Origin: a virus
Length of the DNA stretch: 64,000 nt
Strand: one strand, 5' to 3'
Virus record (IMG/VR): IMGVR_UViG_3300046692_000130
Span: 1-64,000 of that record
Shown: positions 8,020-58,887 of the stretch, piece by piece
Position numbering within the stretch: position 1 is the stretch's first letter
Layout: each line of letters begins with the position of its first letter
Program-made: the position numbers and the translations under genes
The notes under the pieces: generated by a model
Told to the model about the DNA's origin: nothing
The model's database searches: none
The model's input: only the letters and a program-made list of their open reading frames with translations

Positions 8020-8325
8020 TCAGTCGCAGAATATGTCGTAGAAGTCGCCTTTTACGGGCAACGGCCATAGCAGTACAACGGTGCCATCCTCCGGTACTTG
8101 CACGGTGGGAGCGTTGGGTACGTTCTCACCTGTCTGTTGTACGAGGCAGTGAGCGCCTTTCTTGAGGTTGGGCAGCTTGAAGAGATCTGTGTGGTTGCCG
8201 GTCGACTCGACTGACATACGAAACGTGACAGGATCCATCGTTGAATTCTGGGCGATCATTCCGATGCCACAGCCGATGAGTGGAAGCGCCAGCGCGCCGA
8301 GTAAAGTTGCTGTGATGTTCCTCAT
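8020..8325 (-). CDS. Exported or lipoprotein-like hypothetical protein
   Basis: MRNITATLLGALALPLIGC: signal peptide with lipobox-like LIGC. Confidence 0.6.
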   Translation of the reverse strand: MRNITATLLGALALPLIGCGIGMIAQNSTMDPVTFRMSVESTGNHTDLFKLPNLKKGAHCLVQQTGENVPNAPTVQVPEDGTVVLLWPLPVKGDFYDIFCD

Positions 8326-24932: not shown

Positions 24933-25667
24933 GTGATCGAAGAAGGACTGTACCTCCAACTGAACCAGACTGATGGTCTGACTTGTCTCATTGGTCACCA
25001 CGCAGTCCACTTGAACTTTGCGCCACAGGTTGCACCCAACCCATGCATCGTCATGCAGGGCATCTCATCCACTCCTGACTACACGTTCTACGGCCCCAGC
25101 GGCTTCAACACGCGACGATACCAGTTCAGTTGCTACGGCGACACGTATCCACAAGCGAAACGCGTACAGGAGGCTCTGAGGCTTGCTCTCGATGGCTTCA
25201 ATGGCTATCTGCCCAATGGGGCGCTCGTCTTCGACATTCGACGCGACAACGAGCAAGACCTATACGACAACGAGAGCAATTCACATCGCATCATCACTGA
25301 CTTCTACATCGACTTCCAAGAGTTGGGTCAGGGGCAGGTGAGCAACATCACGCAGAACGTCGCACCACAACTTATCACGGAGACATACCAACCTGTAATG
25401 CTTATCGACTTCTCCGTTCGCAACGCAATACACAGTTTGACGCTGACTGGTGATGTGGAATTCACATTCACTGGAGGCGTAGCTGGACAACTCATTACGC
25501 TCATCATCACTCAGGATGGAGTCGGTGGTCACCAGATTACAAGCTGGTCGCCCAACATCACTAGCGGTGTGCAGGTAGGACAGGTCGCTGGAGCGTCAAC
25601 TGCGCTGCAGTTCTTGTTCGACGGTGCGAACTACCTCTTGCTGAACGCACCGATCAGCAGTCAATAA
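24933..25667 (+). CDS. Tail terminator (DUF3168-like) fused to an extra C-terminal beta domain
   Basis: RYQFSCYG..Y..AK..LRLALDG; C-terminal ~90 aa resembles the C-terminus of 37309-37977. Confidence 0.8.
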   Translation: MIEEGLYLQLNQTDGLTCLIGHHAVHLNFAPQVAPNPCIVMQGISSTPDYTFYGPSGFNTRRYQFSCYGDTYPQAKRVQEALRLALDGFNGYLPNGALVFDIRRDNEQDLYDNESNSHRIITDFYIDFQELGQGQVSNITQNVAPQLITETYQPVMLIDFSVRNAIHSLTLTGDVEFTFTGGVAGQLITLIITQDGVGGHQITSWSPNITSGVQVGQVAGASTALQFLFDGANYLLLNAPISSQ

Positions 25668-27080: not shown

Positions 27081-30000
27081 ATGGCGACGACAAAAGTCGG
27101 CACGATAAGTGTCGAACTCATCGCGAAGACAACAAGCTTCAGTGACGCGATGACGAAGGCGTCCCAGATCTCACTGAACACAAGCAGGAACGTGCAGCGG
27201 TCACTGGGTTTGATCTCAGTGGCTGCAACGGCTATGGCTGGAGGCGTCACCGCTGCCCTCACTGCAGTCATCACGAAGTCTGAAGAGTTCGTCTTCACGA
27301 TGCAGCAGATGGCTGAGAAGACCGGCACAACGGTTGAAAACTTCTCCCGGCTGGCCTACGCGGCCCGTTCTGCTGGCGTACCTGTAGATCTGCTCAAGAC
27401 GTCCATGGAGCGCCTTGCTCGTACGTCCTACGCTGCACAGAGCGGTCAGAAAGGTTCTGCCGAAGCCTTCGCTGCACTTGGCATATCGGTCAATGACCTC
27501 AAGGGGCCACTCAACGATTCATCGGCCCTGATGATCGAAGTTGCAAAGCGGCTCGATAAGTACAAAGACTCGACTAACAAAACAGGTCTGGAACAGAAAC
27601 TCTTCAGCCGTTCGGGCGCTGAACTCGCTCCCATTCTTCGGCTCACAGGCAACAATTTCGAAGAGCTTTCCAGACAGGCTGAGAAGTACGGCGTAGTCAT
27701 CAGTGGTGAGGCTGCAGAGAAGTCCCGCCAGCTTCATCAGAACATCGTTCAGCTACAGTCAGCCATACAGGGCATGGGAGTGAAGATTCTCACAAGCGCT
27801 TCCCCAGCGCTCTCTGAGCTTGCCCAGAAGTTCCTCGCGTTCGCAACTAGCGCAAAGGGGCAGGATGCAATCGCGCGGTTCGGTGATGTAGTAGCCAAGG
27901 GCGTCACGCTGGCAGGTAAGGCGTTCGACTTCCTCGTGCAACATGCCACAGCAGTAAAGCTCATTCTCGAAGCAATCGCAATCAGCAAGGTCACTGGCTT
28001 CATGCTCAGTGTCGCGACAAACAACGGCAAGGCTGGCGCGTCATTCGCCAATCTAGCAACGGGTGCTGGGCGGTTCCTCGCGAACATGACCGGCTTTGGT
28101 GACATAGAGCGCTCGGTCAAGAGCCTCACTCCTGTCGTATCGGGACTAGCGTCCTCCTTCGGTGGAGTACTCACGACCGGCATGCGTAACTTCGCAGCGT
28201 CGTCTGCAGCGGGTAAAGCAAGCGTTGCTGAGTTCCTAGCATCGATTCCTACGCTGGCTGCTTCGGCGGTCGCTGCGATCAAAGGAATCTCGTTCAATGG
28301 CATCTCGTTCACCGCTCTAACGCAGTCGCTGCAAGGCATGGTCTCTTCAGGACTCATCGCCGCTAAGACCGGACTACAGACACTGAAGTTCGCCATTCTC
28401 GATTCTGCTGTAGCTGCTGACGTCTTCGTCAAGGCTAACGGCGGTATCAAGAACGTCATGATGGATCTGGTCAGTGTTGGTCAGGTTCTTGTGAATCAGG
28501 GGCTGGACAAGATCAGAGTCGCTTTCGTTGCGATTCAGAATCTGAACGTCACTGGACTGTTTACTGGTTTCGGCGCAGCGATCAGTCAGTTCGCAACAAC
28601 TGCCGTAGCCTCAATCGGAGGTGTCACTGCTGCACTGTGGGACTTGACAGTGGCTGCTGTAGTGAATCCGTTGACGTGGCTCGTCGTAGGCGCTGCCGCC
28701 CTCGCTGCTGCAACGGTTGCGATGTACAGGTTCCGCGACTCTGCGATCACGGTAAATGGCGAAGGCTTCCTGCTTCGCGATACGTGGCAAGGCGCATGGA
28801 TCGGAATCAAATCTGGACTCGATTCACTGTGGGAGAGGTTCAAAGGCTTCTGCAGCACGGTAAAGAGTCTGTGGGGCGACGTCATTGGCTGGTTCAGCAA
28901 GACGGCGTTCGGCTCGATCATCCTTGAGCAGATCAGCAAAGCGGTCGAAGGCGTCAAGTCTTTGATTCGGTCGCTGGCTTCTTACCTACATGTACCGGCA
29001 TGGCTCCTCAAAGGCATGGAGGAATCCAAGCGCCAGCGTGAGCAGTCAGAGAAGCAGAAGAGCGCCCCAGCATCAACAGGGGCAGGATCTACTGACAAGC
29101 CAGTCGCACCGCCACTCCCCGGCCCACCCGCTAAGGTGGATGAATTGATGAAGCGTCTCAAAGAGCTTCAAGATTCGGCCATAGAGGCGAAGAAGGCGCT
29201 CAACGACGTCGGCAACGGCCCAGACTACCTAAGGGCAGACAAGATCGATAAGGACGTCATCAAGTTCCTCGATCAGTACGCTGACAAGATCAAGCTTCTG
29301 AGCAAAGCACAACAGGATAAGCTACGCGCCGATGTTCGCGCTGCTGTGACCCTGCAGGTGAACTCGGATGCTGAACGTGAACTTGATCAGCAGATCATCG
29401 ACGGCACACGGTCTATTGAAGAGCAGACCAATGCAACGCTGCTCCGCAACGACGCAATCCGCGCCGGTACGAAGGCGATGCATGACGCTGTTGTTCAGTC
29501 TCAGTTGAATACATTCCTCTCAGGCAAGAGTGATGAGTGGAAGCGTGGCCATCCTCAAGAGATCGAGAAGTATCGCTCTGCGATTGACAAGAGTACCTCT
29601 GTCAACGAAGACGCAAAGATCACGCAGGACATTGCAAGTCTGCAGGATGAAGTCAACACACAGGACATGCTGAACAAGGCAATCCTGAGAGGCTCTGATG
29701 CGCGCCAACAGGCATCGCTTCAGATCCAGATTCAGCAGATGAGGCTGGAGAAGTTCAATGGTGATCAGTCGACCAACAACGACGGGATCAACAAGCAAAT
29801 CGATCTGCTCACACGGCTCGACGAGTTGAAGCAGCGCTCTGCTGCACTCGACAAAGCTGCAAGCATGAATCCTCAGATCGCCTACTTGGAAGCAATCAAG
29901 CGCACGAGTGAAGCTGCACAGGCGGCTCGTGGAGAGGGACAGCCTCTGGACGACCGTGCAGTCATGGCGGCGAACAAGGAAGCTCTTGATCAGTACTACG

Positions 30001-30833
30001 ACTCCGTCAACAAGACCAATCTCGCGGTTGGTAATGGTCTCGACGGTATTCGTACCTACTTCCAAGAGATGGCCCGAGGCGCTGAGTCGGCTGCACAGCA
30101 GATTCACGACGTACTTGGTGGAGCGTTCGAATCATTGAACGATACCGTCCTGAAGGTCATGAATGGGCAGAAGGCAAGCTGGTCGAGCTTCTTCCATGGC
30201 ATCGGCGATTCGCTCGTGAAGATCAGCCTCCAGAAGACTGAGCAGGGTATCGCAAATGTCATTCTGGGCGCGGCGGGACAGGGTCAGAAAGGCCCGGGCG
30301 GCTCACCTATAAAGGGTGGCGTCGGTGGCATTCTCGGCGGGATCCTCGGCGGTGGTAAAGCGCCGGTCGGTACCTCTGGCGATCCACTGCACGTAAAGGT
30401 CGTCGGTATGGCTGGATCTGGTATGCCGAGTCTGGGTGGTCTGTCACTTCCGAAGGTTACAAGCTCGGGCGACGACAACGGGGGCGGGGGTTGGTTCTCC
30501 AAGTTCCTCGGCTTCGGTAGTCACATGGCTTCATCGTTCGCTGGCCACTTGGCTGGCGGCGGCGACGTCAAGGCTGGCTACATGTACGACGTCGGCGAGA
30601 TGGGACGTGAACGATTCGTTCCAACACAGAACGGAAGGATAGTCCCGAACAACAAGCTCGGCGGCGACTCGCACACGTACCACATCGACGCATCTGGTAG
30701 CAGCAACCCTGCAGCCACAGAGGCGGCGGTTCATCGCGCTATGCAGAAGGCTTTGCCACACTCAGTCGCTGCAAGTGTGCAGACACAACATCAACAGAAA
30801 CTCAGATCACCTGCAGGAGCACGGAGAGGCTAA
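27081..30833 (+). CDS. Tail tape measure protein
   Basis: 1250 aa, Ala-rich helical; C-terminal AGGGDV..Y.VGE.G.E.FVP. Confidence 0.95.
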   Translation: MATTKVGTISVELIAKTTSFSDAMTKASQISLNTSRNVQRSLGLISVAATAMAGGVTAALTAVITKSEEFVFTMQQMAEKTGTTVENFSRLAYAARSAGVPVDLLKTSMERLARTSYAAQSGQKGSAEAFAALGISVNDLKGPLNDSSALMIEVAKRLDKYKDSTNKTGLEQKLFSRSGAELAPILRLTGNNFEELSRQAEKYGVVISGEAAEKSRQLHQNIVQLQSAIQGMGVKILTSASPALSELAQKFLAFATSAKGQDAIARFGDVVAKGVTLAGKAFDFLVQHATAVKLILEAIAISKVTGFMLSVATNNGKAGASFANLATGAGRFLANMTGFGDIERSVKSLTPVVSGLASSFGGVLTTGMRNFAASSAAGKASVAEFLASIPTLAASAVAAIKGISFNGISFTALTQSLQGMVSSGLIAAKTGLQTLKFAILDSAVAADVFVKANGGIKNVMMDLVSVGQVLVNQGLDKIRVAFVAIQNLNVTGLFTGFGAAISQFATTAVASIGGVTAALWDLTVAAVVNPLTWLVVGAAALAAATVAMYRFRDSAITVNGEGFLLRDTWQGAWIGIKSGLDSLWERFKGFCSTVKSLWGDVIGWFSKTAFGSIILEQISKAVEGVKSLIRSLASYLHVPAWLLKGMEESKRQREQSEKQKSAPASTGAGSTDKPVAPPLPGPPAKVDELMKRLKELQDSAIEAKKALNDVGNGPDYLRADKIDKDVIKFLDQYADKIKLLSKAQQDKLRADVRAAVTLQVNSDAERELDQQIIDGTRSIEEQTNATLLRNDAIRAGTKAMHDAVVQSQLNTFLSGKSDEWKRGHPQEIEKYRSAIDKSTSVNEDAKITQDIASLQDEVNTQDMLNKAILRGSDARQQASLQIQIQQMRLEKFNGDQSTNNDGINKQIDLLTRLDELKQRSAALDKAASMNPQIAYLEAIKRTSEAAQAARGEGQPLDDRAVMAANKEALDQYYDSVNKTNLAVGNGLDGIRTYFQEMARGAESAAQQIHDVLGGAFESLNDTVLKVMNGQKASWSSFFHGIGDSLVKISLQKTEQGIANVILGAAGQGQKGPGGSPIKGGVGGILGGILGGGKAPVGTSGDPLHVKVVGMAGSGMPSLGGLSLPKVTSSGDDNGGGGWFSKFLGFGSHMASSFAGHLAGGGDVKAGYMYDVGEMGRERFVPTQNGRIVPNNKLGGDSHTYHIDASGSSNPAATEAAVHRAMQKALPHSVAASVQTQHQQKLRSPAGARRG

Positions 30834-37308: not shown

Positions 37309-37977
37309 ATGGCAACTTCAACTCCAAATCTTAGTCTCGTGCAACCTCCTGCGGGTACGGATGGTTGGGCTGGCTCGATGAACGATAACCTCGACAAGCT
37401 CGATCAGGCTATCCAAGCCCTGCGCGCACAAGTCGCAACCACTGTACAAGGCCCACCGGGCGCAACGGGTGCTACTGGCCCGACCGGCCTCGTTTGGATG
37501 GGGCCATGGTCATCTGTGATCTCTTACCCCAAGAACGCAGGTGTGAGCTACAACGGTGCTTCCTACATCGCGCTCGGCCCCAACAGCGCAGTACAACCAG
37601 ACATCAACCCAAACACATGGGGAGTGCTAGCAGTTGGTGGTGTAGGTGGTGGCGACACGGTCGTCCCTCCGTCCCTCAACAACTTGCCCTTTACTAGCAG
37701 CTTGACAGTGGACTTCTCTACCTTGAACGCCACGCAACGCGTCGTCGTTACAACTGACGTGAGCATCACCTTGACCGGCGCTGTAGCTGGGCAGGACTGC
37801 AAGCTCATCGTCGTCCAAGACAGCGTAGGTGGTCACCAGATCTCGGGCTGGGCATCGAACGTGCTCGGCGGTGCGCTGCTCCCATCTGGAGCCACACCCA
37901 ACACATCTGCGCTCTTCGTCTTCCACTACGACGGCACGAACTATCTCCTGTCGAACATCCCAATCGCTAATCAGTAA
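37309..37977 (+). CDS. Fibre adaptor-like protein: collagen-like GXY repeats, small beta module, C-terminal beta domain
   Basis: TPNLSL..P, N.DKLD, GPPGATGATGPTG, W.G.W....Y....VSYNG.SY. Confidence 0.75.
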   Translation: MATSTPNLSLVQPPAGTDGWAGSMNDNLDKLDQAIQALRAQVATTVQGPPGATGATGPTGLVWMGPWSSVISYPKNAGVSYNGASYIALGPNSAVQPDINPNTWGVLAVGGVGGGDTVVPPSLNNLPFTSSLTVDFSTLNATQRVVVTTDVSITLTGAVAGQDCKLIVVQDSVGGHQISGWASNVLGGALLPSGATPNTSALFVFHYDGTNYLLSNIPIANQ

Positions 37978-37987
37978 AAGGATCACA

Positions 37988-40900
37988 ATGAAACTTATGA
38001 AATACATTGCCAGCTTTTTGCTGGTGATGTTCGCACTCCTGCCTATGTCATTTGGACAGGCGAAACAGGTGGCCCCTGCTGGCGGTATCGATACACCGCA
38101 GATCAATCATCTGGTCATTTGTGATAACCATTACGCAAGTCTGCAGCAGTGCGTGAACGTCGCTGGCACGACGAGTAGTGTGTTGGTTCCCTACGCCCAG
38201 CATCCGGGTGAAACCTATTCGAACCCTCACTCAGTTACCGTGCTCGACATTCGCCAGACACTGCCGTCCGGTGCGAATCCTGCCGGTACAATCTTTCAGG
38301 ATCAACTCAACAATGGTAGCGGTGGTTTAGCGGCTGGAATCACGCACGGTGGCCCTAACAACCTCGACCTTCTGAACCCCGGTGCTATACAGGCGTTCCG
38401 TCTCAACTACGTCACACCGGGAACAGATACTCAAACGTATCCGCATCAGCACACGAACATCTACAACTCGTCGTCCTCGAAGCGGTACATGAGCAACGAC
38501 GATATCACCCACACGATGCTGAACCTCTACATCCCAAGCGGTGGCAAGAACTACAGCAATCAGTATTCAGGTGGAGAATCGACAGCCTTTGAGAAGCCAA
38601 ACCACGCCATCCTAACGCTGAACTCTCTCAAGCAAACCGAGGGACAGGGTGGTGGATACTTCGCTTCTCTTGTGAAGAATCTCGGCGTCGGCGACACGAT
38701 GATGAACACGCAGCAAGGTGTAGCGACAGGTGTGAGCGATGGTGACGACGAAGGTTTGAAGTTCTTTCGCGCCAACCTAATTCACAATCCTAGCCGCTTC
38801 GGAATGTCCATCACTTCGATTGCATCCGACTCCTATGGTAACTACGTGTTTCGTGGAACAAACACAGGCTCTTACAATGGTCTACCTTCTGAGGGACTGC
38901 CTGTCATCAATCTGTCGAAAGACTTAAATCCTTCGCAGACTGGAAACATTACTGACATTCGTGCGTATGCAGCCGACAATCGCTTTGCACAGGTGACGCC
39001 AGACACTGGCATCAACATCGCTACCCTCCTGGGTAATTCGACAGTAAGCTATACCACTTCTTCGATTGTGCCTAGCAATCTAAGTGCTGGTATCCTCACT
39101 GCCAAGAATGGTTCAGGTGGTTTGTCGAGCGCCACTGTGACAGTTACAAACGCAACCGGCTTCACTGCAAGTAGCACGATTCCGGTTTGTATTGGATCTG
39201 TGGCAGCAAACTACGAACAGACCTATATCTCAGCAGTCAATACCTCCACTAACACGCTGACCCTACAGTACGCTCGATATCAGCATGGCACGAACGATAT
39301 GGTGTCTCAGGGTGGAGCTTGTGGTTACGCTATCGCGATGAGCGCCGACGAGAAGGCTCCCGGCACTGTACCGGCCAACGATCTTGCAAGTCAGACCACG
39401 ACACTCCATAACGCTTACTACGTGATGGGTACGATCAGCGGAAACTTCATCGTCTACACGAACATGCATGCAAGTGCCGATGCCGTCCTTCATACAGCGG
39501 CTTACACCAACACCACCCCGTTAGTGGCAGGGACGCTTACACCCTCAGTGGGTGGAGGGCAGCTTAATGGATTAGCGATCAATGGTGATGCCAACTACTC
39601 CAACTACAGAGGAAATTTCGTAGGACAGACGACGCTTGCCTATCCTACGATCACCTTCAGTGGCGGGGGCTGCACAACTCAGCCGGTAGCAAGCGTGACG
39701 AGCTATGCCCGTCCAAGTGCTTCTCAGATCCTTCCCGTCATCACCATAACCAATCCCGGCGCAGGATGCAGTGGTTCACTCACTGCAACAATGCAAAGCA
39801 GCTACGCCAACCCGTATCACCTTTATCCTGCTACGGTCAGCTTCAAAGTAATTGACCCAAGCGCAGCCATCGATCCGAATACTGGTGAGCCTTCAGCCAG
39901 CGGCAACTACGTAATGACTGAGGCCGTCAATCCAGCGAACTGGGCGAACGGCGACACGCTCGAAATCAGTGGCTGGTGGAATCAGTACGCAGGGTCAAAT
40001 GTGACGCTCGGTACTATCTACGGTGGGCAGAGCAACAACTTCAGTCTCAGACATGCTTTGCTCTTTGCTGGAGACTGGGCGGGTTCTGAACCTGTGGGCA
40101 ATACCCTTAGCGGTATCGTCAACAGAACACCTTCCTCGCACTACTACAGCCCCAATGGCCCATCTCCCGGCGTTGCCTACGAACTGCCTCCAGATGGTTT
40201 CGAGTTGGGCGGCATGATGAAGAATTCCATCTGGACATCAGATGCTCCAACTGATTCCGTGATGGCCGTAAGGTGCGTCAGTGGTGGATCCTTCTATGTG
40301 GATGCTCTTTCCCCCTGCAACTTTGGAGTGGCGCAGAGCTATCACATCTGGAAAGGCTTCACGGCTTCCAACATCGCGGCCTACGACAGCATCGACTACA
40401 ACAACGGCACGAGAACCATCACCTACAATGTGCCTAACTTTGTGTTCCAGAACGGCAACATCAGCTTTGGTTCAACGTCAGGATTTGGAACGACACCTAG
40501 TTTCCATACTGGCCTACAGATCAAGCATGACAACGGTGTGACCTTTGTGAATGACAACGGGCCAACGCAGATTATTCATATTTGCAATCCGTTGTTCTCT
40601 GCTTCGAATGTGCTTGGCGTAGGTGCTTGCCATCCGAGAGCGGGAGACACTGCCGACTACAACTTCGATGGTCGTTGGGATGCAGGTTATCTCAATGCCA
40701 ACGTAGCCTCTCGTACTCCTGCTTTGAGCGTGAGTCTTGCGCCTCCGGTGTTTTTGGGGTCAGCTACATGGAGTGGTACAGGCAGCGGCCATAACTATCA
40801 GTTTGTCTTTGCTGCTATTAGCCCTCTTGGAATCATGGGGCCAATATCAGCGGATACTTTGGGCGTCTTCAATCAGGGCACTCTCGGCGGCGGCAACTCG

Positions 40901-41578
40901 ATCACAATAAGCTGCAGCACGACGGCGGCACAAATCGGATACCCTTCAGGGACTACGATTGCTGCTTTGCTCCCTGACGGAGCAGGAAACTACATCAACG
41001 AAGGCACCTGCGGTTCAGGTGGCACGATTACTGTAGACGGATCTCACACCACCAATGTTGTGCTTCCGACCCACGCCTACAACAGCTTCATCGGTGCGGG
41101 ACAGTACAGGGTCGAGGCAAGTGGCGATATCTCGTTCCTACCATCGCAAACCACAGAGACAGGTGATACACACATAGCGAGAACAGGCGCGAATGATGTA
41201 TCAATCGGCTCAACCAAGGGCGCATCTGATGGCGCACTGCACGTCGGATCTCTGACCATCGGTGGCAACGCTGTATGTCAGTCAACCGGAACCAATTGCC
41301 CATCGAGCGGTGGCGGTACCCCACTTGGCGGTACGGTGACTCTCACTTCCCCATCATCGGGAATCGAGGGAGGCATTTGTTGGAGCAACACTGTGACGGT
41401 AACCGGCGCAACAGTAGGACACGCTGTGGCTGTATCCACTGCTGACGGTAGCGACGGCAATGCATTCAGCATCGTGAAAGCGACCGTATCAGCGGCCAAC
41501 ACGATCAAGGTGCAGGAATGCGCGTATGCTACGGCACCGTTCGATCCGACTACAACCTACGCAGTGTCGACCTACTAA
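37988..41578 (+). CDS. Fibre/spike-position beta-rich protein with Sec-type signal peptide
   Basis: Start reassigned to ATG 37988 (AAGGA RBS); MKLMKYIASFLLVMFALLPMSFG; Gly/Ser/Thr/Asn-rich; 16 Cys. Confidence 0.8.
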   Translation: MKLMKYIASFLLVMFALLPMSFGQAKQVAPAGGIDTPQINHLVICDNHYASLQQCVNVAGTTSSVLVPYAQHPGETYSNPHSVTVLDIRQTLPSGANPAGTIFQDQLNNGSGGLAAGITHGGPNNLDLLNPGAIQAFRLNYVTPGTDTQTYPHQHTNIYNSSSSKRYMSNDDITHTMLNLYIPSGGKNYSNQYSGGESTAFEKPNHAILTLNSLKQTEGQGGGYFASLVKNLGVGDTMMNTQQGVATGVSDGDDEGLKFFRANLIHNPSRFGMSITSIASDSYGNYVFRGTNTGSYNGLPSEGLPVINLSKDLNPSQTGNITDIRAYAADNRFAQVTPDTGINIATLLGNSTVSYTTSSIVPSNLSAGILTAKNGSGGLSSATVTVTNATGFTASSTIPVCIGSVAANYEQTYISAVNTSTNTLTLQYARYQHGTNDMVSQGGACGYAIAMSADEKAPGTVPANDLASQTTTLHNAYYVMGTISGNFIVYTNMHASADAVLHTAAYTNTTPLVAGTLTPSVGGGQLNGLAINGDANYSNYRGNFVGQTTLAYPTITFSGGGCTTQPVASVTSYARPSASQILPVITITNPGAGCSGSLTATMQSSYANPYHLYPATVSFKVIDPSAAIDPNTGEPSASGNYVMTEAVNPANWANGDTLEISGWWNQYAGSNVTLGTIYGGQSNNFSLRHALLFAGDWAGSEPVGNTLSGIVNRTPSSHYYSPNGPSPGVAYELPPDGFELGGMMKNSIWTSDAPTDSVMAVRCVSGGSFYVDALSPCNFGVAQSYHIWKGFTASNIAAYDSIDYNNGTRTITYNVPNFVFQNGNISFGSTSGFGTTPSFHTGLQIKHDNGVTFVNDNGPTQIIHICNPLFSASNVLGVGACHPRAGDTADYNFDGRWDAGYLNANVASRTPALSVSLAPPVFLGSATWSGTGSGHNYQFVFAAISPLGIMGPISADTLGVFNQGTLGGGNSITISCSTTAAQIGYPSGTTIAALLPDGAGNYINEGTCGSGGTITVDGSHTTNVVLPTHAYNSFIGAGQYRVEASGDISFLPSQTTETGDTHIARTGANDVSIGSTKGASDGALHVGSLTIGGNAVCQSTGTNCPSSGGGTPLGGTVTLTSPSSGIEGGICWSNTVTVTGATVGHAVAVSTADGSDGNAFSIVKATVSAANTIKVQECAYATAPFDPTTTYAVSTY

Positions 41579-41685
41579 ACGACAACGAAACACGAGCACT
41601 GGGCGATCTTCACCAAAACAGCGGTGGGTCGCCCTTTGTGCTTCACAACACTACACGGGACTCCGTGACTCTGAGGTATTTTCTA

Positions 41686-42051
41686 ATGGCCATCCCAGCG
41701 CTTCAAATCACTGCAATCGCAGTGTCTGTCCTTGGCTTCTTGTTCGGCGGTGGGCTGCTCAAGTATTTGTCCAACCGTATTGAGGAGAAAGCGATCATCA
41801 AGACGAAAGTCCTTGATCTTGAGAAGAGGGCAGACAAGCTCTCTGCGAAGATTCAGGCTCACGATACGACGATTGCTTTGCAGGGACAGAGTATTGCTTC
41901 GCTCAGTGAGGCAATGAAGAAGCTCGACGATCTGCCCAAGATCCTTACTGCCTTGGGTGTGCTGGGCGAAAAGATCGCCTCAATCGAACGACAGTTGAAT
42001 CGATTGGATGGGGTCAAGGGCGAACCAGACGACCCGTTTTGCCAGCGCTAA
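41686..42051 (+). CDS. Holin-like single-TM coiled-coil protein
   Basis: N-terminal TM helix then coiled coil; GAGG RBS; follows the tail module. Confidence 0.6.
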   Translation: MAIPALQITAIAVSVLGFLFGGGLLKYLSNRIEEKAIIKTKVLDLEKRADKLSAKIQAHDTTIALQGQSIASLSEAMKKLDDLPKILTALGVLGEKIASIERQLNRLDGVKGEPDDPFCQR

Positions 42052-42054
42052 AAA

Positions 42055-42099
42055 CCAGCATAAAAACTATTGACTTCAGCGCGGACTGTGTTGTACATT
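42055..42099 (+). promoter_or_regulatory. Promoter CCAGCATAAAAACTA-TTGACT-N18-TACATT
   Basis: Shared upstream element. Confidence 0.75.
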
Positions 42100-42142
42100 A
42101 CACATAGTCCTCGTTGCCTACCGGAAACGTGGAGATTGCATT

Positions 42143-43087
42143 TTGAAAACAGTGCGACCTCGGCTTACAGACGAACAGAAGTCTGTGATCCTTGCAAGCT
42201 TGCGTTATGGCGCTTCAAACCGTGCCATTGCGCGTGATCTAGCTGTCGATGAGAAGACTATTCGCCGCTTCAGGGCGTCTCTCGACGTAACAGAAAAACA
42301 TGGACGGGAGGAGACCCTTGGGCAGTCGCATCTAAGCAACAACGCTGTAAAGCGCTTCATTGCAGTATCTGACATCCACTGGCCTTACGTCCATAAACCC
42401 ACCATCAAGCTCATCCTGAGTCTCCTTGGAGACATTCAGTTCGACGGGTTCGTCTTCCTCGGCGATCAGTTCGACAACTCCGTCATCAGCCACCACAACA
42501 AGGGTAAGAACCTTCTCAAGCCGCGTGGTTCCTACTACGCAGAAGAGACGTCGTTCGACAAGGAATTCCTGCGCCCAGTTGAGCAGTTGATTGGCGACGG
42601 TAAGAAGATCTGGATCAAGGGAAACCACGATCACTGGGAGACCCAGTACGTCGAAGAGTTCCCTGAACTCGAAGGCAAGATCGAGCGCGACATCAGCCTC
42701 AAGCTGGAGGAGCGTGGTTGGGAAGTTGTTGAGTGTGGCAAGTCCTACACGTACGGCAAGCTTACCTATCTCCATGGTGAGACGCTGACCGGCGCACAAC
42801 ACGCTAAGAAGGCGCTGGAAGTCTTCTGCACCAACGTCCTGTACGGACACTTCCACAGCCCTCAGAGCGCGACCAAGGTGCTCCCACATAACCAGACACA
42901 GAAGTGGAGTGCATGGTGCAGCCCCATTGCTGGGGATTGCAACCCGTACTACATGCGTAACAAGCCGTCTGGCTGGGTGAATGGCTTCACGCTCATCGAG
43001 TACACACGCAACGGAAACTTCAATCTCTACCCAATCATCACGAGCGGGAACGAGATCGCCTATGGAGGCAAGATCTACAAGGCATGA
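42143..43087 (+). CDS. Calcineurin-like metallophosphoesterase with N-terminal HTH
   Basis: SDIHWP, LGDQFD, GNHD, HG, GHFH. Confidence 0.9.
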   Translation: MKTVRPRLTDEQKSVILASLRYGASNRAIARDLAVDEKTIRRFRASLDVTEKHGREETLGQSHLSNNAVKRFIAVSDIHWPYVHKPTIKLILSLLGDIQFDGFVFLGDQFDNSVISHHNKGKNLLKPRGSYYAEETSFDKEFLRPVEQLIGDGKKIWIKGNHDHWETQYVEEFPELEGKIERDISLKLEERGWEVVECGKSYTYGKLTYLHGETLTGAQHAKKALEVFCTNVLYGHFHSPQSATKVLPHNQTQKWSAWCSPIAGDCNPYYMRNKPSGWVNGFTLIEYTRNGNFNLYPIITSGNEIAYGGKIYKA

Positions 43088-43130: not shown

Positions 43131-43781
43131 ATGCAACCCAGCCCCAAGACACCACTCATCATTGCATTCGGTTACAAGGCACAGTCGGGCAAGGGGGAAA
43201 GCGCTGAGACCATTCGGCGCTCCCGCTCGACCTTCAGTGGCCACATCGGTATCTTCAGCTTCGCTACGGCGCTCCGCGACGAGATCCATGGCGCTGTGCT
43301 CGATCTGATCGAGAAGACAGGTGTGACGCCACAGTTGGCCTTGCAGGAGCTTTGCTCCAAGTTTGGGGTCACCTACGACGAGAACGCCAAGGTCGACAAG
43401 CTCAACCCATGGGGCAAGCAACGCGCCCTCCAGCAGTACTGGGGAACTGAGTATCGGCGCGCACAAGATCCACAGTATTGGGTCAAGAAGCTGCACACGT
43501 CCATCGCCGACAGTTGCGTTGATATCGCGCTGATCGACGACATGCGATTCCCTAACGAGTACGCATGGGCAGATACCAATGGCTACACCGTGAAGGTTGA
43601 ACGTCGTGACTTCGCCGGTCTTGAAGGTGATGCAGCAATGCACTCATCGGAGACCAGCTTGGACGGCTATGACTTCGACTACTACATCTCTGCAGGTGCT
43701 GATGGCCTTGCAGAGTTGCGCGCACAGGCTCTGCATGTGTTCGACACCGTCCTTGAACTTTTCCAAACGAAAGAGAAGTAA
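43131..43781 (+). CDS. Deoxynucleoside monophosphate kinase
   Basis: GYKAQSGK, SFA..L, R.LQQYWGTEY.R, IDDMRFPNE, HSSE. Confidence 0.88.
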   Translation: MQPSPKTPLIIAFGYKAQSGKGESAETIRRSRSTFSGHIGIFSFATALRDEIHGAVLDLIEKTGVTPQLALQELCSKFGVTYDENAKVDKLNPWGKQRALQQYWGTEYRRAQDPQYWVKKLHTSIADSCVDIALIDDMRFPNEYAWADTNGYTVKVERRDFAGLEGDAAMHSSETSLDGYDFDYYISAGADGLAELRAQALHVFDTVLELFQTKEK

Positions 43782-45540: not shown

Positions 45541-46752
45541 ATGACCAGAGCACGATTCCAAGAAGGATCGCTCCAGATCAAGGGCAAGGGCGCGAAGGCT
45601 GAGTACTTCACGCGGATCCGTGTCTATGACGACATAACTGGGAAGTCCACCCAGCCACGCATCTCGCTCGGCCTCGTCTCCAAGATGAGCAAGCGCGAAG
45701 CCCTGAAGAAGAGGGCAGAGATCATCGGAGAACGTCTTCACCAGTTGCCGAAGTCTGCGCCGACTGCCTCCATGCGTGGATCCACCACACTTGAGAACTT
45801 CTACCGTGAGCGCTTCCTGATCATGAAGTCTCATTGGAGCCAAGCCCAGCGCGACAGCTTCGCATACATCATGGACAGCTTCGTCCTGCCCCGGTTCGGC
45901 AAGTATGCCATCAGCGACATCGACAAGGTTCTGGTGCAGAGTCTTCTCAACTCTCTTGAGGAAAAGTACAGCAAGAGCACACTGACCCACGTACGCACCA
46001 AGATGGTCGAAGTCTTCGAAGAGGCTGTCGAGCAGGACTACGCAGTAAAGAACCCCGCCGCGAAGACCAAGATCCCGGCTGGAGCGCGCCTACCAGAGCG
46101 GCCCGTCCTGACGTCTGAATGGCTCATGCAGATCATCGCCAAGGTCACCGACGCCCGGGACAAGGCAGTGTTCATGGTGGCCACCTTCTGCGCCCTACGT
46201 ACCAGTGAGGCGTTCGGTCTTCCATGGGGCAACTTCCACCACGATGAAGCGACCGGCACCGGCTGGTTCCTGATCGACCAGATCGCGTACCGAGGCAAGC
46301 GCTACAAGCGCACCAAGAACGACGCCAGCAAGGCCCGGGTGCATATCAGCAAGAAGACGCTGGCGGCAATCCTCCAGTGGCAGAAGGAGTGCAAAGACAC
46401 GAGTCCTGACGCTCTGATGTTCCCCAGCACGAACAAGAATGGCCGGTCGAAGAAAGGCGCGCCTATGTACCCACCTACGTGGCTCCAGAAGCGCCTACAA
46501 CCGATTGCTGACTCTCTGGGTATCCCATTCAAGGTCAACTTCAGGGCGACCCGTAGGACGGCCATTACGCTGGTACAGGAGCAAGGATCCTCACTGGCTT
46601 CGGCTCAGGGTATGGCTCGGCATGCATCGCCCAAGTCGACGTCCGAGATCTACACACAGATCGTGCCAGAGAACGTGAAGAAGGCAGTCAACGACTATGA
46701 AGAGATGGTGTTTGCTGCGAAGCCTAAAGCCAAACTCACCCGAGTGAAATAG
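45541..46752 (+). CDS. int: Tyrosine integrase
   Basis: R.R.Q.GS N-terminus, ALRTSEAFGL, TK, RATRRT, RH....T.EIY. Confidence 0.92.
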   Translation: MTRARFQEGSLQIKGKGAKAEYFTRIRVYDDITGKSTQPRISLGLVSKMSKREALKKRAEIIGERLHQLPKSAPTASMRGSTTLENFYRERFLIMKSHWSQAQRDSFAYIMDSFVLPRFGKYAISDIDKVLVQSLLNSLEEKYSKSTLTHVRTKMVEVFEEAVEQDYAVKNPAAKTKIPAGARLPERPVLTSEWLMQIIAKVTDARDKAVFMVATFCALRTSEAFGLPWGNFHHDEATGTGWFLIDQIAYRGKRYKRTKNDASKARVHISKKTLAAILQWQKECKDTSPDALMFPSTNKNGRSKKGAPMYPPTWLQKRLQPIADSLGIPFKVNFRATRRTAITLVQEQGSSLASAQGMARHASPKSTSEIYTQIVPENVKKAVNDYEEMVFAAKPKAKLTRVK

Positions 46753-47005: not shown

Positions 47006-47082
47006 GGGCGGTTAGCTCAGTTGGTTAGAGCGGGTGCCTTACAAGCACTAGGTCGGGGGTTCGAATCCCTCACTGCCCACCA
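47006..47082 (+). tRNA. tRNA-Val(TAC), probable attP core
   Basis: GGGCGGT/ACTGCCC acceptor, GGTGC-CTTACAA-GCACT anticodon arm, TTCGAAT, ACCA end. Confidence 0.95.
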
Positions 47083-49410: not shown

Positions 49411-49454
49411 ACTCTACGGAACCATGTGGCAGAAGTCAACAATTATTTTGCTTG
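49411..49454 (-). promoter_or_regulatory. Promoter TTGACT-N17-TAGAGT with variant CAAGCA element
   Basis: Directly upstream of hicA. Confidence 0.65.
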
Positions 49455-49545
49455 TTACGCTAATTTTCTTTCTTGTCTGCATGTCTGCACAAACACAAAC
49501 GCCCCGGTCAAAGCCGAGGCGAATGCGAGAGGGACTGACGAAGGT

Positions 49546-50253
49546 TTACGCTACATTCTTCCAACGTGGGCTGTAGCGACCGTAGAGCTTCTTGCGACCG
49601 GCTGGGCCAAGCTTACGCAGGGCGACGATGTTCTTCACGATCTCGGCCCGTTCGAATGAATCCTTACGACCGCCGTCCAAGTAACGAGCGATCTGGTCGT
49701 CGAGGATCCCGGCGAACTCCGTAGGACGAACATAGTGAACAGCATCGAGCAACCAGCCATGGCGGCGATTGACTTCGGCCTTGACAACCTTGTTCCGCGC
49801 CACAGAGCAGCTAGGGCAGAAGAGGCGTTCAGCTTTGTAGGCTGTGATAGCGGTGCCACACTCAGGGTTTGAGCAGACGGCAAGGTTGACGCCAAGCTGG
49901 CGAAGGATATCCAGATCGATCTTCCATGCTGAGTCGCCCATAGCTACCGACTTGAAGACGTTGTAGCAGCGGTTCTGCAGAGAGTGGGTAGCAGCCTTAC
50001 CGGCGTTCTGCTTGGTGTCGTACTTGCTGATGGGCATACCGCCCCAGAGAGCGATGAAGTTATCCTCGACCACAACCCCGGGCAGAGAGACGGAGAACCA
50101 TTCAGGGTGCTTGTCGCTGAAGGACACATACACCGGGTACTCACCGGCCTCGACCTCGACGTCCTGCCACCATGCAGCGCACTCGTAGCTGGCGTTGCGG
50201 AAGATTGCCTTCTCAGAAACCTTGAATGTGCCGACCTGAATGCTCTGGTTCAT
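49546..50253 (-). CDS. Hypothetical protein with Zn ribbon
   Basis: CSNPEC..FCPSC. Confidence 0.7.
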   Translation of the reverse strand: MNQSIQVGTFKVSEKAIFRNASYECAAWWQDVEVEAGEYPVYVSFSDKHPEWFSVSLPGVVVEDNFIALWGGMPISKYDTKQNAGKAATHSLQNRCYNVFKSVAMGDSAWKIDLDILRQLGVNLAVCSNPECGTAITAYKAERLFCPSCSVARNKVVKAEVNRRHGWLLDAVHYVRPTEFAGILDDQIARYLDGGRKDSFERAEIVKNIVALRKLGPAGRKKLYGRYSPRWKNVA

Positions 50254-53384: not shown

Positions 53385-53678
53385 TCATAAATTGCCAGCA
53401 CGGTTCCTCACCTTCTTGACACGTTGCAATGCTGATTCACGCTGCTCCAGACGACGTTGTAGCTGGTTATTCCTATCAGCCATACGTTGTAGCGCACAGG
53501 TCTTGCACTCGTTGTAGTATCCGAAGTCCATTTGCAGGAGGTGGATTGTGCAGTACCCGTTGCGTCGAAGCACCTTGAGATCGGCGCGCTGCTGTAGCCG
53601 TCTCTCGATGCGTTCAATCAAGCGGTTGGACAATACCAGCCCGACAATGGCAGAGATGATAAGAAGGCAACCAGTCAC
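53385..53678 (-). CDS. Single-TM hypothetical protein
   Basis: GTGA-coupled to lysozyme; N-terminal TM; C..H..C..C. Confidence 0.6.
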   Translation of the reverse strand: MTGCLLIISAIVGLVLSNRLIERIERRLQQRADLKVLRRNGYCTIHLLQMDFGYYNECKTCALQRMADRNNQLQRRLEQRESALQRVKKVRNRAGNL

Positions 53679-54205
53679 AGTAGATCCTGAGTCCTTTCTG
53701 GGTAGTCGCGCTGCACACTTGCGCCTTCCTTGATCAAGCGGACAACGTCAAAGGCACGAGTCTTGACCTCACGGAACCATGCACTGTTGGTGAACTGGGC
53801 AGCGGCCACGTTGTAGTTCTCTGCTTGGAGGGCAGCAATCGCCTTGTAGAAACCAGCGAACTTGGTAGCACCCATGTTGAAGACCATGTCGATCACGGCA
53901 GCGCGCACAGGATCTGGGAGATGGTCAAAGTTCGAAACAGCGCCACGAGCACCTTTGATTGCGTCGGCCAGACTGGCTTGGAACAACGTGTCGATTTGTG
54001 CGTCGTTGAGTGGAAGGTGACCACTGAGTACCCACTTGTATGTAAGGCCCAGTGCTTCGATCTTCTGCTGCGCGCCATCAGCCTTGAGATTGAAGCCGAT
54101 GCCGATAGTGGGAATGCCCTTGGAGTCGAGATACATTGAAGACCGTCTGCCCTCGTGCTTTGCAATAAGGTCTTCTACAAACTTGGCGAATTCTGCAGGG
54201 TTCAA
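53675..54205 (-). CDS. T4-like lysozyme (GH24)
   Basis: HEG.....YLDS.G.PTIGIG, DMVFNMG, SAW..EVK.RA. Confidence 0.92.
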   Translation of the reverse strand: MNPAEFAKFVEDLIAKHEGRRSSMYLDSKGIPTIGIGFNLKADGAQQKIEALGLTYKWVLSGHLPLNDAQIDTLFQASLADAIKGARGAVSNFDHLPDPVRAAVIDMVFNMGATKFAGFYKAIAALQAENYNVAAAQFTNSAWFREVKTRAFDVVRLIKEGASVQRDYPERTQDLL

Positions 54206-56028: not shown

Positions 56029-57681
56029 TTATGCACTACAGGACGCGCAGTCAAGAAGTGAACGGCTCAACTCTTGCGCTGCATTGACACTGTACTGGTA
56101 ATAGAGACTCTTGACGCCAAGCTCGTGCGCCAGAAGGAACAGAGCATTGACATCCTTGATCGGATCCTTCGGCGAGATCATCAGATTCAGAGACACGCCC
56201 TGATCGATGAAGCGCTGGCGCGCACCGGCCTGAATGATCACTTCCTTAGGCGAGATCTCGGCAAACGTCTTGAAGACAGCCTTCTCATGATCACTGAGGA
56301 AGTCCAGATGCTGAACGCTTCCCTTCTTGGACAGAATGCTATCCCAGACCTCAGGTGTGTTCCTGCCCATGGACTCAAGCAGCGCCTCCAAGTGGACGTT
56401 CTTGATCGTGAACTTACCCTTGGCGAGATCCTTGATGTAGTAGTTCGCCTTGTGTGGCTCGATACCCTCAGAGACCTGACCGAGAATGAACGCAGACGAC
56501 TTGGTCGGCGCAATGGCCAATAGCGTCGTGTTACGGCGTCCGTAGCCCTTCAGATAGTAAGGCTCCCCAAAGATCTGTGCGAGGTCAGTAGAGGCAGCGT
56601 ATGCCTGTTCCTTGATGGTCTTAGCGATCTCCACGTTGAGGAACTTAGCCTCCATGGATTCGAACGGAATCATCTTGCTCTGCAGGTAGCTGTGCCAGCC
56701 AAGCTGACCGATACCGAGAGCACGGTGACGCTTTGCGAACAGCACTGCGCGCTCAAGGAACCTGATGCCAGCCGCCTTCTCGATGAACTCCGACATGACT
56801 GCGTCGAGAAAGAAGGTCAGAAGCTCTACAGCGTCCGTATTCTTCCACGCGTCATAATGCAAAAGGTTCATGCTCGACAGGTCACAGACGAACGACTCGG
56901 TCTCAGAGTCTGGCAGCATAATCTCGCTGCACAGATTCGAGTGAGTGATCTTCATGCCCTTGTCGCGATAGACATCAGGCGCGCCGTTGTTGGCGTTGTC
57001 GATGAAGAGGATGTATGGGTAGCCGACGTTGGCCCGTACCTCAAGCACCTTGGCCCAGATCTTGCGCTTCTCAGCATCACCGGCCTTCATCTCTGCCAGC
57101 CAGTAGTCTGGTACTGAGACGCCAAACGAGAGATCCTGTACCGGGCTTCCCTCGCTCCTGATTGTCAGGAACTCCATGATGTCGCCGTGATCGATCGGCA
57201 AGTACGCGGCGAAGTTTCCACGGCGTGTGCGACCTTGTGAGACCACGTTGATCAGGTTGTCGAACAGGCGCATGAAGTGGACTGCACCTGAACTCTCACC
57301 GTTGTCAGTGATCGGTGCGCCACGCTTACGAAGCTCACCAAAATAGGCCGACGTACCGCCACCATACTTGGTCATGGCTCCGACTTCAGAGACTGTGTGA
57401 AGGATTGATTCAATCGTGTCGCCCATGTACGAGCCAAAGCACGATATGGGCAGACCACGGTTAGTGCCGAAGTTAGCCCAGATGGGTGTAGAGAGGGACA
57501 CCCAGCCCTTCTGAATGATTGCCTTGAAGCGCGCTGCGAAGCCGGAGATCCCCAGCCTACGCTCTGCCTCTGAGCAGATGATGTCTACGCGCTCGTCAAG
57601 CGTCTGGCCGGGTAAAAGGTAGTCCCGGTCTAGGAATTGCTGGCTCATTTCTGTAAGCCAGACGTAATCTGTGTTGCTCAA
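56029..57681 (-). CDS. nrdA: Ribonucleotide reductase class I alpha subunit
   Basis: LPISCF, GGGTS, SNLCSEI, AIAPT.SS, SLYY, C-terminal CASC. Confidence 0.96.
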   Translation of the reverse strand: MSNTDYVWLTEMSQQFLDRDYLLPGQTLDERVDIICSEAERRLGISGFAARFKAIIQKGWVSLSTPIWANFGTNRGLPISCFGSYMGDTIESILHTVSEVGAMTKYGGGTSAYFGELRKRGAPITDNGESSGAVHFMRLFDNLINVVSQGRTRRGNFAAYLPIDHGDIMEFLTIRSEGSPVQDLSFGVSVPDYWLAEMKAGDAEKRKIWAKVLEVRANVGYPYILFIDNANNGAPDVYRDKGMKITHSNLCSEIMLPDSETESFVCDLSSMNLLHYDAWKNTDAVELLTFFLDAVMSEFIEKAAGIRFLERAVLFAKRHRALGIGQLGWHSYLQSKMIPFESMEAKFLNVEIAKTIKEQAYAASTDLAQIFGEPYYLKGYGRRNTTLLAIAPTKSSAFILGQVSEGIEPHKANYYIKDLAKGKFTIKNVHLEALLESMGRNTPEVWDSILSKKGSVQHLDFLSDHEKAVFKTFAEISPKEVIIQAGARQRFIDQGVSLNLMISPKDPIKDVNALFLLAHELGVKSLYYQYSVNAAQELSRSLLDCASCSA

Positions 57682-57689
57682 AAACTCTC

Positions 57690-57902
57690 CTATCCTTTGT
57701 TGCTGTAGATAACCTTGCCGTCGACTCGCGCTTCTTCCATATCCTCAGGGGCATACTGTGCAGCGAGGAACGCAGTTGCGTCATGGATGAGGCTCTGGAC
57801 TTCTGTTAGTGGCTGGCCAGCTTTGATCGGTGGATCGTACTCGGCCTTCAGGGACAAGGTGCCATCTGGGTTCTCGGTGACTGTCAGTGTTGCTTTGCTC
57901 AA
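57690..57902 (-). CDS. Small hypothetical protein between nrdB and nrdA
   Basis: GGAG RBS before TTG 57902. Confidence 0.6.
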   Translation of the reverse strand: MSKATLTVTENPDGTLSLKAEYDPPIKAGQPLTEVQSLIHDATAFLAAQYAPEDMEEARVDGKVIYSNKG

Positions 57903-57912
57903 TACGTTCTCC

Positions 57913-58887
57913 TTAGAACAAATCGTCTGCAGTGAAGCTCTGCATCTTCTTGCTGTAGGCGACACTCTTCTTGTTGAAGAAGTCGTTGTTGACTTCGGTC
58001 TGAAGCTCTTCATCGAACCAGCGCAGAGTCTCCAGCTTGTCCTTGTCGACCTCGAATACCAACGGCGCGTCGATCAGCACCATGGACTCATTGAAGCGCT
58101 GCTTGATGAATTCCTTGACAGTTTCTTTGGGCAGGAACGGAAGCTCACCGGCCTCGAAGATCCAGTCGATGATCTGGCACTCAGCCTCGAATGCCTTCTT
58201 GGCGGCGCGGTGGATCGTCTTGTAGAAGTCCTCGTTGAACCACTCAGGGTTCTCGGTCTTGATGTACTTGACGATGGTCGCGCCGAGGAGAGCATGAATT
58301 GTCTCTTCCTTCTGCGTGGCCTGTACGACGTTGTCAATGTCCTTCAGCAGATTGCGATGCTTGTTGAATGACTTGATGATTGCGAACTGGCTGAACAGCG
58401 ACACGTTCTCAATGAACATAGAGAAGAGCGTCAGCGTGAGTGCGTAGTTCTGGTTGCTGCTGTCGGCTGCACCTTTGAGGTACTTGGTCAGGTAATCGAC
58501 CCGGCCCTGAATGACAGGATTCTGGAGCAGCATGGTGAAGTCGTCGTTCAGGCCAAGCACCTGTAGGAGATGAGAGTAGGCGTCAGCGTGGCGTACTTCG
58601 CTCTCGCCGAACGTCACACCCACCTGCTCAAACTCAGCCTTGGGGAACCTGTCGCCCAGCTTCGTCCAGAATCGCTTCACTGAGATCTCGATCTGTGAGA
58701 TGGCCAGCAGAGTGTTCTTGATGGCATTGCGCTCGACCGCGTCCAGCTTGACATTGAAGTCCTGCAAGTCTGCAGTGAAGTTCCACTCCGAGACCAGCCA
58801 GAAGCTGTGGTTGATTGCGTCTTTGAATGCGACTACATCTGGATATTCGAATGGCTTGAACGCCACTCGTTTGGTAAAGATACTCAA
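57913..58887 (-). CDS. nrdB: Ribonucleotide reductase class I beta subunit
   Basis: KPFEYP, EVRHADAY, ENVSLFSQF, EETIH, DFF. Confidence 0.96.
   Translation of the reverse strand: MSIFTKRVAFKPFEYPDVVAFKDAINHSFWLVSEWNFTADLQDFNVKLDAVERNAIKNTLLAISQIEISVKRFWTKLGDRFPKAEFEQVGVTFGESEVRHADAYSHLLQVLGLNDDFTMLLQNPVIQGRVDYLTKYLKGAADSSNQNYALTLTLFSMFIENVSLFSQFAIIKSFNKHRNLLKDIDNVVQATQKEETIHALLGATIVKYIKTENPEWFNEDFYKTIHRAAKKAFEAECQIIDWIFEAGELPFLPKETVKEFIKQRFNESMVLIDAPLVFEVDKDKLETLRWFDEELQTEVNNDFFNKKSVAYSKKMQSFTADDLF

Follow-up and report, generated by a model that had tools for sequence, protein, structure and literature searches.

A fibre-like protein with a predicted Sec signal peptide and paired cysteines closes the tail operon of a temperate soil siphovirus

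The stretch of DNA analyzed here (the window) comprises positions 1 to 64,000 of the IMG/VR virus record IMGVR_UViG_3300046692_000130 and so covers the initial 64 kb of a viral record of 94.6 kb whose completeness is estimated at about 77%. The phage is a temperate siphovirus of roughly 95 kb from soil that probably infects Acidobacteria. Its tail genes end with a gene for a large protein, P0001, which begins with a Sec-type signal peptide and carries its cysteines in pairs. The signal and the cysteine pairs, together with their conservation in relatives, indicate that P0001 is very probably exported and oxidatively folded outside the cytoplasm, and it may join the phage particle from there.

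The + strand of the window carries a complete siphovirus late operon. The head genes of this operon encode terminase, portal, protease, capsid, adaptor, head closure, Neck1 and tail terminator proteins, and the tail genes follow in the order major tail protein, tape measure (27081-30833), Dit, tail protein, DUF6950, a J-like protein, P0008 and P0001. The P0001 gene (open reading frame (ORF) 37988-41578, + strand) runs from an ATG at 37988 to a stop codon at 41576-41578 and encodes 1196 amino acids (aa). The stop codon of the upstream gene lies at 37975-37977, leaving a spacer of 10 nucleotides (nt) that holds a Shine-Dalgarno sequence (Table 1). P0001 is thus the final large gene of the tail module, co-oriented with and distal to the tape measure, Dit and J-like genes. 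On its 3' side follow an ORF for a transmembrane coiled-coil protein, a promoter-like site, a helix-turn-helix metallophosphoesterase gene, a deoxynucleoside monophosphate (dNMP) kinase gene and the integrase gene (45541-46752) of this temperate phage. No promoter-like or terminator-like sites were seen flanking the P0001 gene on the + strand, and its GC content (53.0%, versus 53.9% for the window) shows no anomaly. These observations support the assignment of the gene to the late structural operon; a moron of the lambda lom/bor type was rejected on the strength of the 10-nt coupling, the lack of an own promoter or terminator and the ordinary GC content. A first-pass annotation of this DNA had placed the gene at the end of the tail operon, 10 nt past a gene for a fibre adaptor. 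The coordinates and the AAGGA site agree with that position. The upstream gene does lie where the annotation put it, but the adaptor label was not upheld: P0008 fits better as a small fibre, with a collagen-like GPPGATGATGPTG repeat and a C-terminal domain that is duplicated on the tail terminator. The alternative of a moron adhesin in the lambda lom sense, also raised there, is disfavoured by the tail-operon coupling, the composition and the missing promoter and terminator.

The N-terminus of P0001 reads MKLMK-YIASFLLVMFALLP-MSFG↓QAKQ (arrow, predicted cut), with the n, h and c regions of a signal for Sec and signal peptidase I; signal calls on P0001 were made by heuristic n/h/c criteria. The n-region contains two lysines (K2 and K5), the hydrophobic core YIASFLLVMFALLP has 14 residues with a Kyte-Doolittle maximum of 2.8-3.2, and the cleavage site has Ser at -3, Gly at -1 and Gln at +1 (S-F-G↓Q). 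Neither a twin-arginine (RR) motif nor a lipobox is present in the N-terminus of P0001, whose first Cys is residue 45. In the AlphaFold model, residues 3-20 form a helix that is followed by a disordered linker.

P0001 contains 16 Cys residues, at positions 45/55, 401/445, 562/594, 763/777, 866/881, 976/1008, 1097/1104 and 1131/1178. The gaps are 7-47 residues within pairs and 27-346 residues between pairs, a spacing seldom reached when 16 positions are drawn at random (summed within-pair gap, P = 0.002; largest within-pair gap, P = 0.001). The J-like neighbour also has 16 Cys, yet without close pairing (P = 0.07), and the other structural proteins are poor in Cys, with none in the capsid protein and 1 among the 1250 residues of the tape measure.

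Relatives of P0001 were sought with HMMER among 1.84 billion representative sequences, which gave 52 clusters at E ≤0.001 and 10 at ≤1e-30; ten clusters that were looked up were singletons from metagenome contigs of 4-142 kb. At their N-termini, 36 sequences passed the strict n/h/c criteria and 4 more had a hydrophobic core followed by A↓Q, these four lacking a basic residue or having a miscalled start. Twelve sequences were fragments starting well within the family core, and were left out of the complete set, and one (P0044) was ambiguous. A signal was thus found in 40 of 40 N-terminally complete representatives, with no complete member lacking one, and in 30 relatives Gln occupies position +1. 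Acidobacteriaceae secreted proteins in the genomes read likewise end their signals in A↓Q. One relative, P0017, has a lipoprotein signal (LLLMG↓C, with a lipobox) in place of the signal peptidase I signal, and this swap argues that location rather than sequence is under selection. As judged from the sequences of its members, the signal is an obligatory trait of the family. No conserved internal Met was found after the signal in the relatives. The mature Cys count is even in 33 of 36 relatives. Of 32 relatives, 31 have retained pairs 562/594 and 763/777; pair 401/445 has both cysteines in 4 of the 32, neither in 27 and a single one in 1, and so tends to be gained or lost whole. The phage tailspike domain K1-lyase_C forms the C-terminal end of two relatives, P0006 and P0034. 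With one family alignment as query, no related loci of the P0001 family were found in viral, genome or metagenome contigs; P0002 as query had no match among viral contigs, and a word-based search of P0001 residues 1-135 against shorter proteins gave no match either.

An apparatus for oxidative folding is encoded in the candidate host lineage, itself deduced as described below: VKOR (PF07884) and Thioredoxin_4 (PF13462, DsbA-like) scored above cut-offs in 5 of 5 genomes. The classic n/h/c signal and the 16 neighbouring-paired cysteines described in the first-pass annotation were both recovered, the former with all three regions and without a Tat motif or lipobox, the latter as eight pairs with P ~0.002 against random placement. 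Its suggestion that P0001 is exported and oxidatively folded is likewise favoured, as a prediction, by the family-wide signal, the co-conserved Cys pairs and the host VKOR/DsbA-like genes. We strongly infer from these sequence features that the signal is cleaved and that disulfides form in P0001. The further proposal of the first-pass annotation, that the protein joins the virion at or after lysis, is possible, as is its alternative of a secreted adhesin or decoy.

Table 1. Coordinates of P0001 parts, neighbouring genes and related loci (positions in the window unless another sequence is named)
Feature	Position	Strand	Remarks
Shine-Dalgarno sequence AAGGA of P0001	37978..37982	+	inside the 10-nt spacer, 5 nt upstream of the ATG
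Sec-type signal peptide, residues 1-23 (MKLMKYIASFLLVMFALLPMSFG)	37988..38056	+	predicted signal peptidase I cut before Gln24
Mature N-terminal module, residues 24-95	38057..38272	+	small alpha/beta; Cys45-Cys55; candidate anchor
Conserved all-beta family core, about residues 128-820	38369..40447	+	Cys562-Cys594 and Cys763-Cys777 near-invariant; Cys401-Cys445 lineage-specific
Beta-sandwich domain, about residues 915-1030	40730..41077	+	Cys976-Cys1008; from AlphaFold
C-terminal module, residues 1072-1196 and stop	41201..41578	+	Cys1097-1104 and Cys1131-1178; AlphaFold confidence low
Small fibre P0008, 222 aa	37309..37977	+	no signal peptide; one Cys
Tail terminator, C-terminal extension (gene 24933-25667)	25359..25664	+	43% identical to P0008 residues 119-222
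J-like central tail fibre, 1598 aa	32469..37265	+	no signal peptide
Downstream 121-aa protein, from Met57 of ORF 41518-42051	41686..42051	+	N-terminal transmembrane helix, coiled coil, C-terminal Cys
Tunturi_4-like replication and nucleotide-metabolism genes	43131-43781, 56029-58887; also 64540-68590 of the record, beyond the window		
Signal-bearing cluster gp337-gp342	Tunturi_5 (PP885688), 284114-298448		three annotated 'tail fiber protein', one 'virion structural protein'
Phage-like element of Acidobacteriaceae	G117:C2, ~1139400-1156500		equivalents: G001:C1, G261:C37, G058:C1, G059:C12

The mature N-terminal module (residues 24-95) is the part of P0001 shared with the relatives P0027, P0041, P0053 and P0057, at 28-42% identity in a MAFFT alignment (43-52% for P0027 and P0041 over the stretch matched by phmmer); beyond it these proteins have wholly diverged. 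All four also carry a signal, and they continue into unrelated shafts and tips, with ATKxYVD and NLSDL...ARxNLGLG repeats, motifs which we take to be typical of fibres, and a LamG tip. Since the N-terminal module is common to proteins with different fibre-type shafts, the sequences support a fibre-like character for P0001, and tail fibres docking on a conserved partner evolve in this way, keeping the N-terminal module and exchanging what lies distal to it. At the other end, the C-terminal module is common to P0001, P0036, P0055 and P0056 and is likely to be the distal tip.

AlphaFold, run with a 33-sequence alignment, gave a confident all-beta core at residues 265-665 (predicted local distance difference test (pLDDT) score 80-95), a beta-sandwich at residues 920-1020, a pLDDT of about 80 for the N-terminal module and a mean of 57 for the whole protein; the poor modelling elsewhere would be as usual for intertwined trimers run as monomers. 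In the VIA structure comparison P0001 gave Z ≤6.5 and matched only with single small domains. The beta-sandwich weakly resembled the phicrAss001 tail muzzle protein (7qok_A, Z 6.3, root-mean-square deviation (rmsd) 3.4, 101 aligned residues) and the SPO1 capsid protein (9vel_C, Z 6.3, rmsd 3.6, 98 aligned). Neither the whole of P0001 nor five sub-regions matched a Pfam or PHROG family, and a PDB profile search found no relative. The best PDB matches in Foldseek were phage endosialidases (E 2e-5), but an endosialidase fold was rejected since the template modelling (TM) scores were only ~0.1. A match to a Beta_helix cluster in the ESM Atlas (0.77) fell under the reliability threshold and is a lead only. 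In BFVD there were 53 matches at E ≤0.001, mainly phage fibre, baseplate or neck proteins, with low TM-scores.

We infer from sequence matches that the host belongs to the Acidobacteriaceae, because of the tRNA-Val gene, the Tunturi_4-like replication genes and the single match of P0001 in the phage collection. The tRNA-Val gene (47006-47082) has a 47-nt exact match in 1 of ~186,000 species genomes, a metagenome-assembled genome of an uncultured Acidobacteriaceae. The replication and nucleotide genes resemble those of the Tunturiibacter phage Tunturi_4, with 63-69% identity for the ribonucleotide reductase subunits, 41% for the helicase, 37.5% for the primase-helicase and 36% for the dNMP kinase; the structural modules of the two phages share nothing, indicating that the modules are of different ancestry. 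The one protein of the phage collection that P0001 matches is gp341 of the Tunturiibacter phage Tunturi_5 (XOB77784.1, annotated 'tail fiber protein'), which aligns with 78% of the query at 25% identity (E 2e-33). It lies within gp337-342, six successive genes each encoding a Sec-type signal that ends in Ala or Gly followed by Gln, whereas gp343-346 encode none. Besides its signal, the product of gp342 has a LamG domain and two SGNH esterase domains.

Family members were also found in 12 of 301 Acidobacteriaceae genomes. In five of these (G001, G058, G059, G117 and G261) the relative has 1410-1550 aa and a signal ending in A↓Q, and its gene lies within a compact phage-like element of ~17-20 kb. 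The element, present in at least 5 Acidobacteriaceae genomes and adjoining the purine-synthesis gene purK in 4 of 5, encodes a sigma-like regulator, the fibre-like protein, a large terminase, a portal, a head-tail adaptor and proteins of 326 and 773 aa without a known family. An old prophage, a domesticated particle and an element of the gene transfer agent type are all possible identities. The relative in genome G182 lies among TonB-receptor-like genes and has a weak, atypical N-terminal signal.

Upstream of P0001, the small fibre P0008 consists of an N-terminal TPNLSL..P..G...W......L..LD motif, the collagen-like repeat and a C-terminal domain of ~100 aa. Its N-terminus resembles the mature N-terminus of Tunturi_5 gp337 (z 4.9; 2 of 2000 shuffles reach the score) and that of P0040 (z 3.8), and the likeness to gp337 suggests that one N-terminal motif is used both with and without a signal. 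Both P0008 and the tail terminator match phrog_19976, and their identity (Table 1) suggests that the same surface domain is present at the neck and at the tail tip. We hypothesize that this ~100-aa domain might be the docking site for P0001. A relation of the P0008 C-terminal domain to the post-signal domain of P0006, P0007 and P0025 was unsupported (BLASTP E ~1, hhalign probability 18%).

The 121-aa protein encoded downstream of P0001 has a weak Rz-like spanin match and lies far from the endolysin gene (53675-54136); no convincing embedded o-spanin was found within 41500-42200. Tunturi_4, which lacks an exported fibre, has a protein of equal build in the corresponding position (gp22), and the 121-aa protein is for this reason probably not a dedicated partner of P0001. 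Elsewhere in the window, an early-region ORF of 101 aa (8020-8325, - strand) has a lipoprotein signal (LPLIG↓C) and no PHROG match, and may encode a superinfection-exclusion or envelope lipoprotein. A further ORF (49424-49576, 50 aa) starts like a strong signal that ends in SA↓QTQ and continues into a basic tail, and may either encode a small secreted peptide or have arisen by chance.

The following route would account for these features. P0001 would be a large fibre-like host-recognition protein, probably trimeric, made late alongside the tail proteins. Guided by its signal, the chain would cross the inner membrane unfolded by way of the Sec translocon, signal peptidase I would cut ahead of Gln24, and the protein would fold in the periplasm with up to eight disulfides, formed by the host VKOR/DsbA-type system. 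It would then accumulate in the periplasm, since no evident passage through the outer membrane exists for a mature chain of 1173 residues, still less for its trimer. Once the envelope is opened by holin, endolysin and spanin, the particles built in the cytoplasm would meet the fibre built in the periplasm, and the N-terminal module would dock on the tail, with the domain shared by P0008 and the tail terminator as the candidate docking site. The trimeric state, the docking site and the attachment at lysis are surmised.

It is quite possible, if short of probable, that P0001 in this way joins cytoplasm-built particles as a Sec-exported, disulfide-stabilized fibre when lysis mixes the two compartments. 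We tentatively favour this reading because of the late-operon coupling, the mosaic fibre architecture and the recurrence of the family among phage structural genes in elements of three unrelated kinds, and because a free receptor-binding protein released at lysis would presumably compete with the progeny of its own phage. Several results weigh against it. No PDB fold match was found for the N-terminal module (Z at most 4.0) and no virion-attachment fold was recognized; hhalign and BLAST gave no significant link of the P0008/terminator domain to P0001 or its relatives. The presence of the J-like fibre means that the phage has a conventional tip protein beside the exported P0001, and with a J-like tip and a small fibre that both lack signals an exported fibre is not strictly required. 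The tail module of Tunturi_4 has no signal-bearing protein, from which it follows that the trait is modular and not universal among these phages. The paper on the Tunturi phages does not mention the signals, reports no virion proteomics and has no occurrence of 'mass spectrometry' (PMC11924767).

The main rival is a late secreted protein that is never on the particle and acts on the envelope or polysaccharide of the infected cell, a reading we consider possible but less likely. P0001 would in that case bind, trim or mask the receptor or exopolysaccharide, from inside the cell or at lysis, and thereby either keep debris or matrix from capturing the progeny or block superinfection. The signal-less tip proteins of the phage could suffice for adsorption. 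Acidobacteria are heavy exopolysaccharide producers, and the export of P0001 itself is well supported. Tunturi_5 gp342 couples a signal with LamG and two SGNH esterases, an enzyme type that modifies receptors, and bacteria export tailspike-like enzymes for their own polysaccharide, such as the Tat-exported WceF (PMC7949094). However, Pfam, the PDB sequence search, Foldseek and VIA found no catalytic domain or enzyme fold in P0001, its mosaic architecture is characteristic of appendages with a conserved docking partner, and the competition with progeny noted above would apply to any such protein freed at lysis. The signal could instead serve a surface fibre or adhesin of the lysogen or infected cell, a case of lysogenic conversion analogous to the mosaic adhesive trimer (MAT) fibres of Bdellovibrio, with a similar layout of signal, conserved N-terminal ~130 aa, phage-like fibre and variable tips (PMC10769870). 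The phage is temperate, and the G182 relative lies amid TonB-receptor-like rather than phage genes. This is nevertheless improbable, since close coupling to the tail genes without an own promoter makes expression in lysogens unlikely, an outer-membrane anchor, beta-signal, lipobox and sorting signal are absent from both ends of P0001, and the family is represented in the jumbo phage Tunturi_5 as well as in compact elements next to a terminase gene.

Finally, the hydrophobic N-terminus might be unused for export, either through a start at the in-frame Met20 or as a buried or membrane-tethering helix, with the cysteines oxidized after release; some phage proteins made in the cytoplasm do gain disulfides after lysis. 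We consider this very improbable. No ribosome site precedes Met20 and no internal Met is conserved in the relatives; the n/h/c layout, the small residues at -3 and -1 and Gln at +1 are kept over otherwise unalignable N-termini, with one lipoprotein swap; and the core of P0001 is rich in Leu and Phe, unlike the weakly hydrophobic signal-anchor-release (SAR) segments.

Tailed-phage assembly is held in textbooks to be wholly cytoplasmic, with leaderless fibres. A full-text search of a limited literature collection on signals in tail fibres, tailspikes and receptor-binding proteins yielded no account of tail fibres that are exported. The phage proteins known to be exported are endolysins or, like Lom, Cor and Llp, small proteins of the envelope, whereas P0001 would be a phage fibre and yet exported. 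It seems possible, though uncertain, that some tailed phages build their particles in two compartments, with Sec-exported, periplasm-oxidized host-recognition fibres added at lysis, and that the P0001 family is one instance. If true, such a late extracytoplasmic assembly step would bear on chaperone-free fibre folding, lysis timing and particle stability in acidic soil, as well as on the engineering and expression of such receptor-binding proteins; under the secreted-protein alternative, the family would represent a class of late phage proteins that reshape the host envelope. New in this analysis are the family with an obligatory signal, the six adjacent genes in a cultured phage and the relatives in a conserved Acidobacteriaceae chromosomal element. 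Since the trait is present in the cultured phage Tunturi_5, with its cultured host Tunturiibacter psychrotolerans, the question is directly testable.

Among known systems, Tunturi_5 gp341 (PP885688; PMC11924767) is like P0001 in its core, its Cys pairs 562/594 and 763/777 and its signal, and its host is of the Acidobacteriaceae, as proposed for the P0001 phage. The two differ in that Tunturi_5 is a 309-kb cultured jumbo myovirus and the P0001 phage a temperate siphovirus of ~95 kb, and in that gp341 has another N-terminal module (TPNLxL motif) and lacks 401/445 as a pair. The MAT fibres of Bdellovibrio bacteriovorus, which are exported and act at the surface (PMC10769870), share with P0001 a signal, a conserved N-terminal domain, a tail-fibre-like shaft and swapped tips. 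No sequence relation between them and P0001 was detected, and MATs are chromosomal genes of a predatory bacterium, many with an S74 chaperone-protease, whereas P0001 is phage-borne and has no S74 or other Pfam domain. WceF of Pantoea stewartii (PMC7949094), the model for a secreted protein, is exported, has a tailspike-like build and acts on the cell's own exopolysaccharide; in contrast to P0001, which is Sec-type, phage-borne and of unrecognized fold, it is Tat-exported in the folded state, encoded by a cellular gene of an exopolysaccharide cluster and a clear beta-helix.

Genuine Sec or lipoprotein signals like that of P0001 are found in lambda Lom and Cor, T5 Llp and fOg44 Lys44 (PMC12309495, PMC6116005). 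The lambda lom gene lies between J and stf, and Lys44 is a late phage protein exported before lysis (PMC12309495, PMC6116005). These are small envelope proteins or enzymes, the morons among them having their own promoters, whereas P0001 is a fibre-like protein of 1200 aa coupled to the tail operon. In position, size and all-beta character P0001 resembles the siphophage side fibres and tailspikes encoded after J (lambda Stf, the K1F and phi92 endosialidases and K1 lyase), with which it shares a mosaic N-terminal anchor and variable distal parts. Those proteins, however, are leaderless and fold in the cytoplasm, often with chaperones, whereas members of the P0001 family always combine a signal with paired cysteines.

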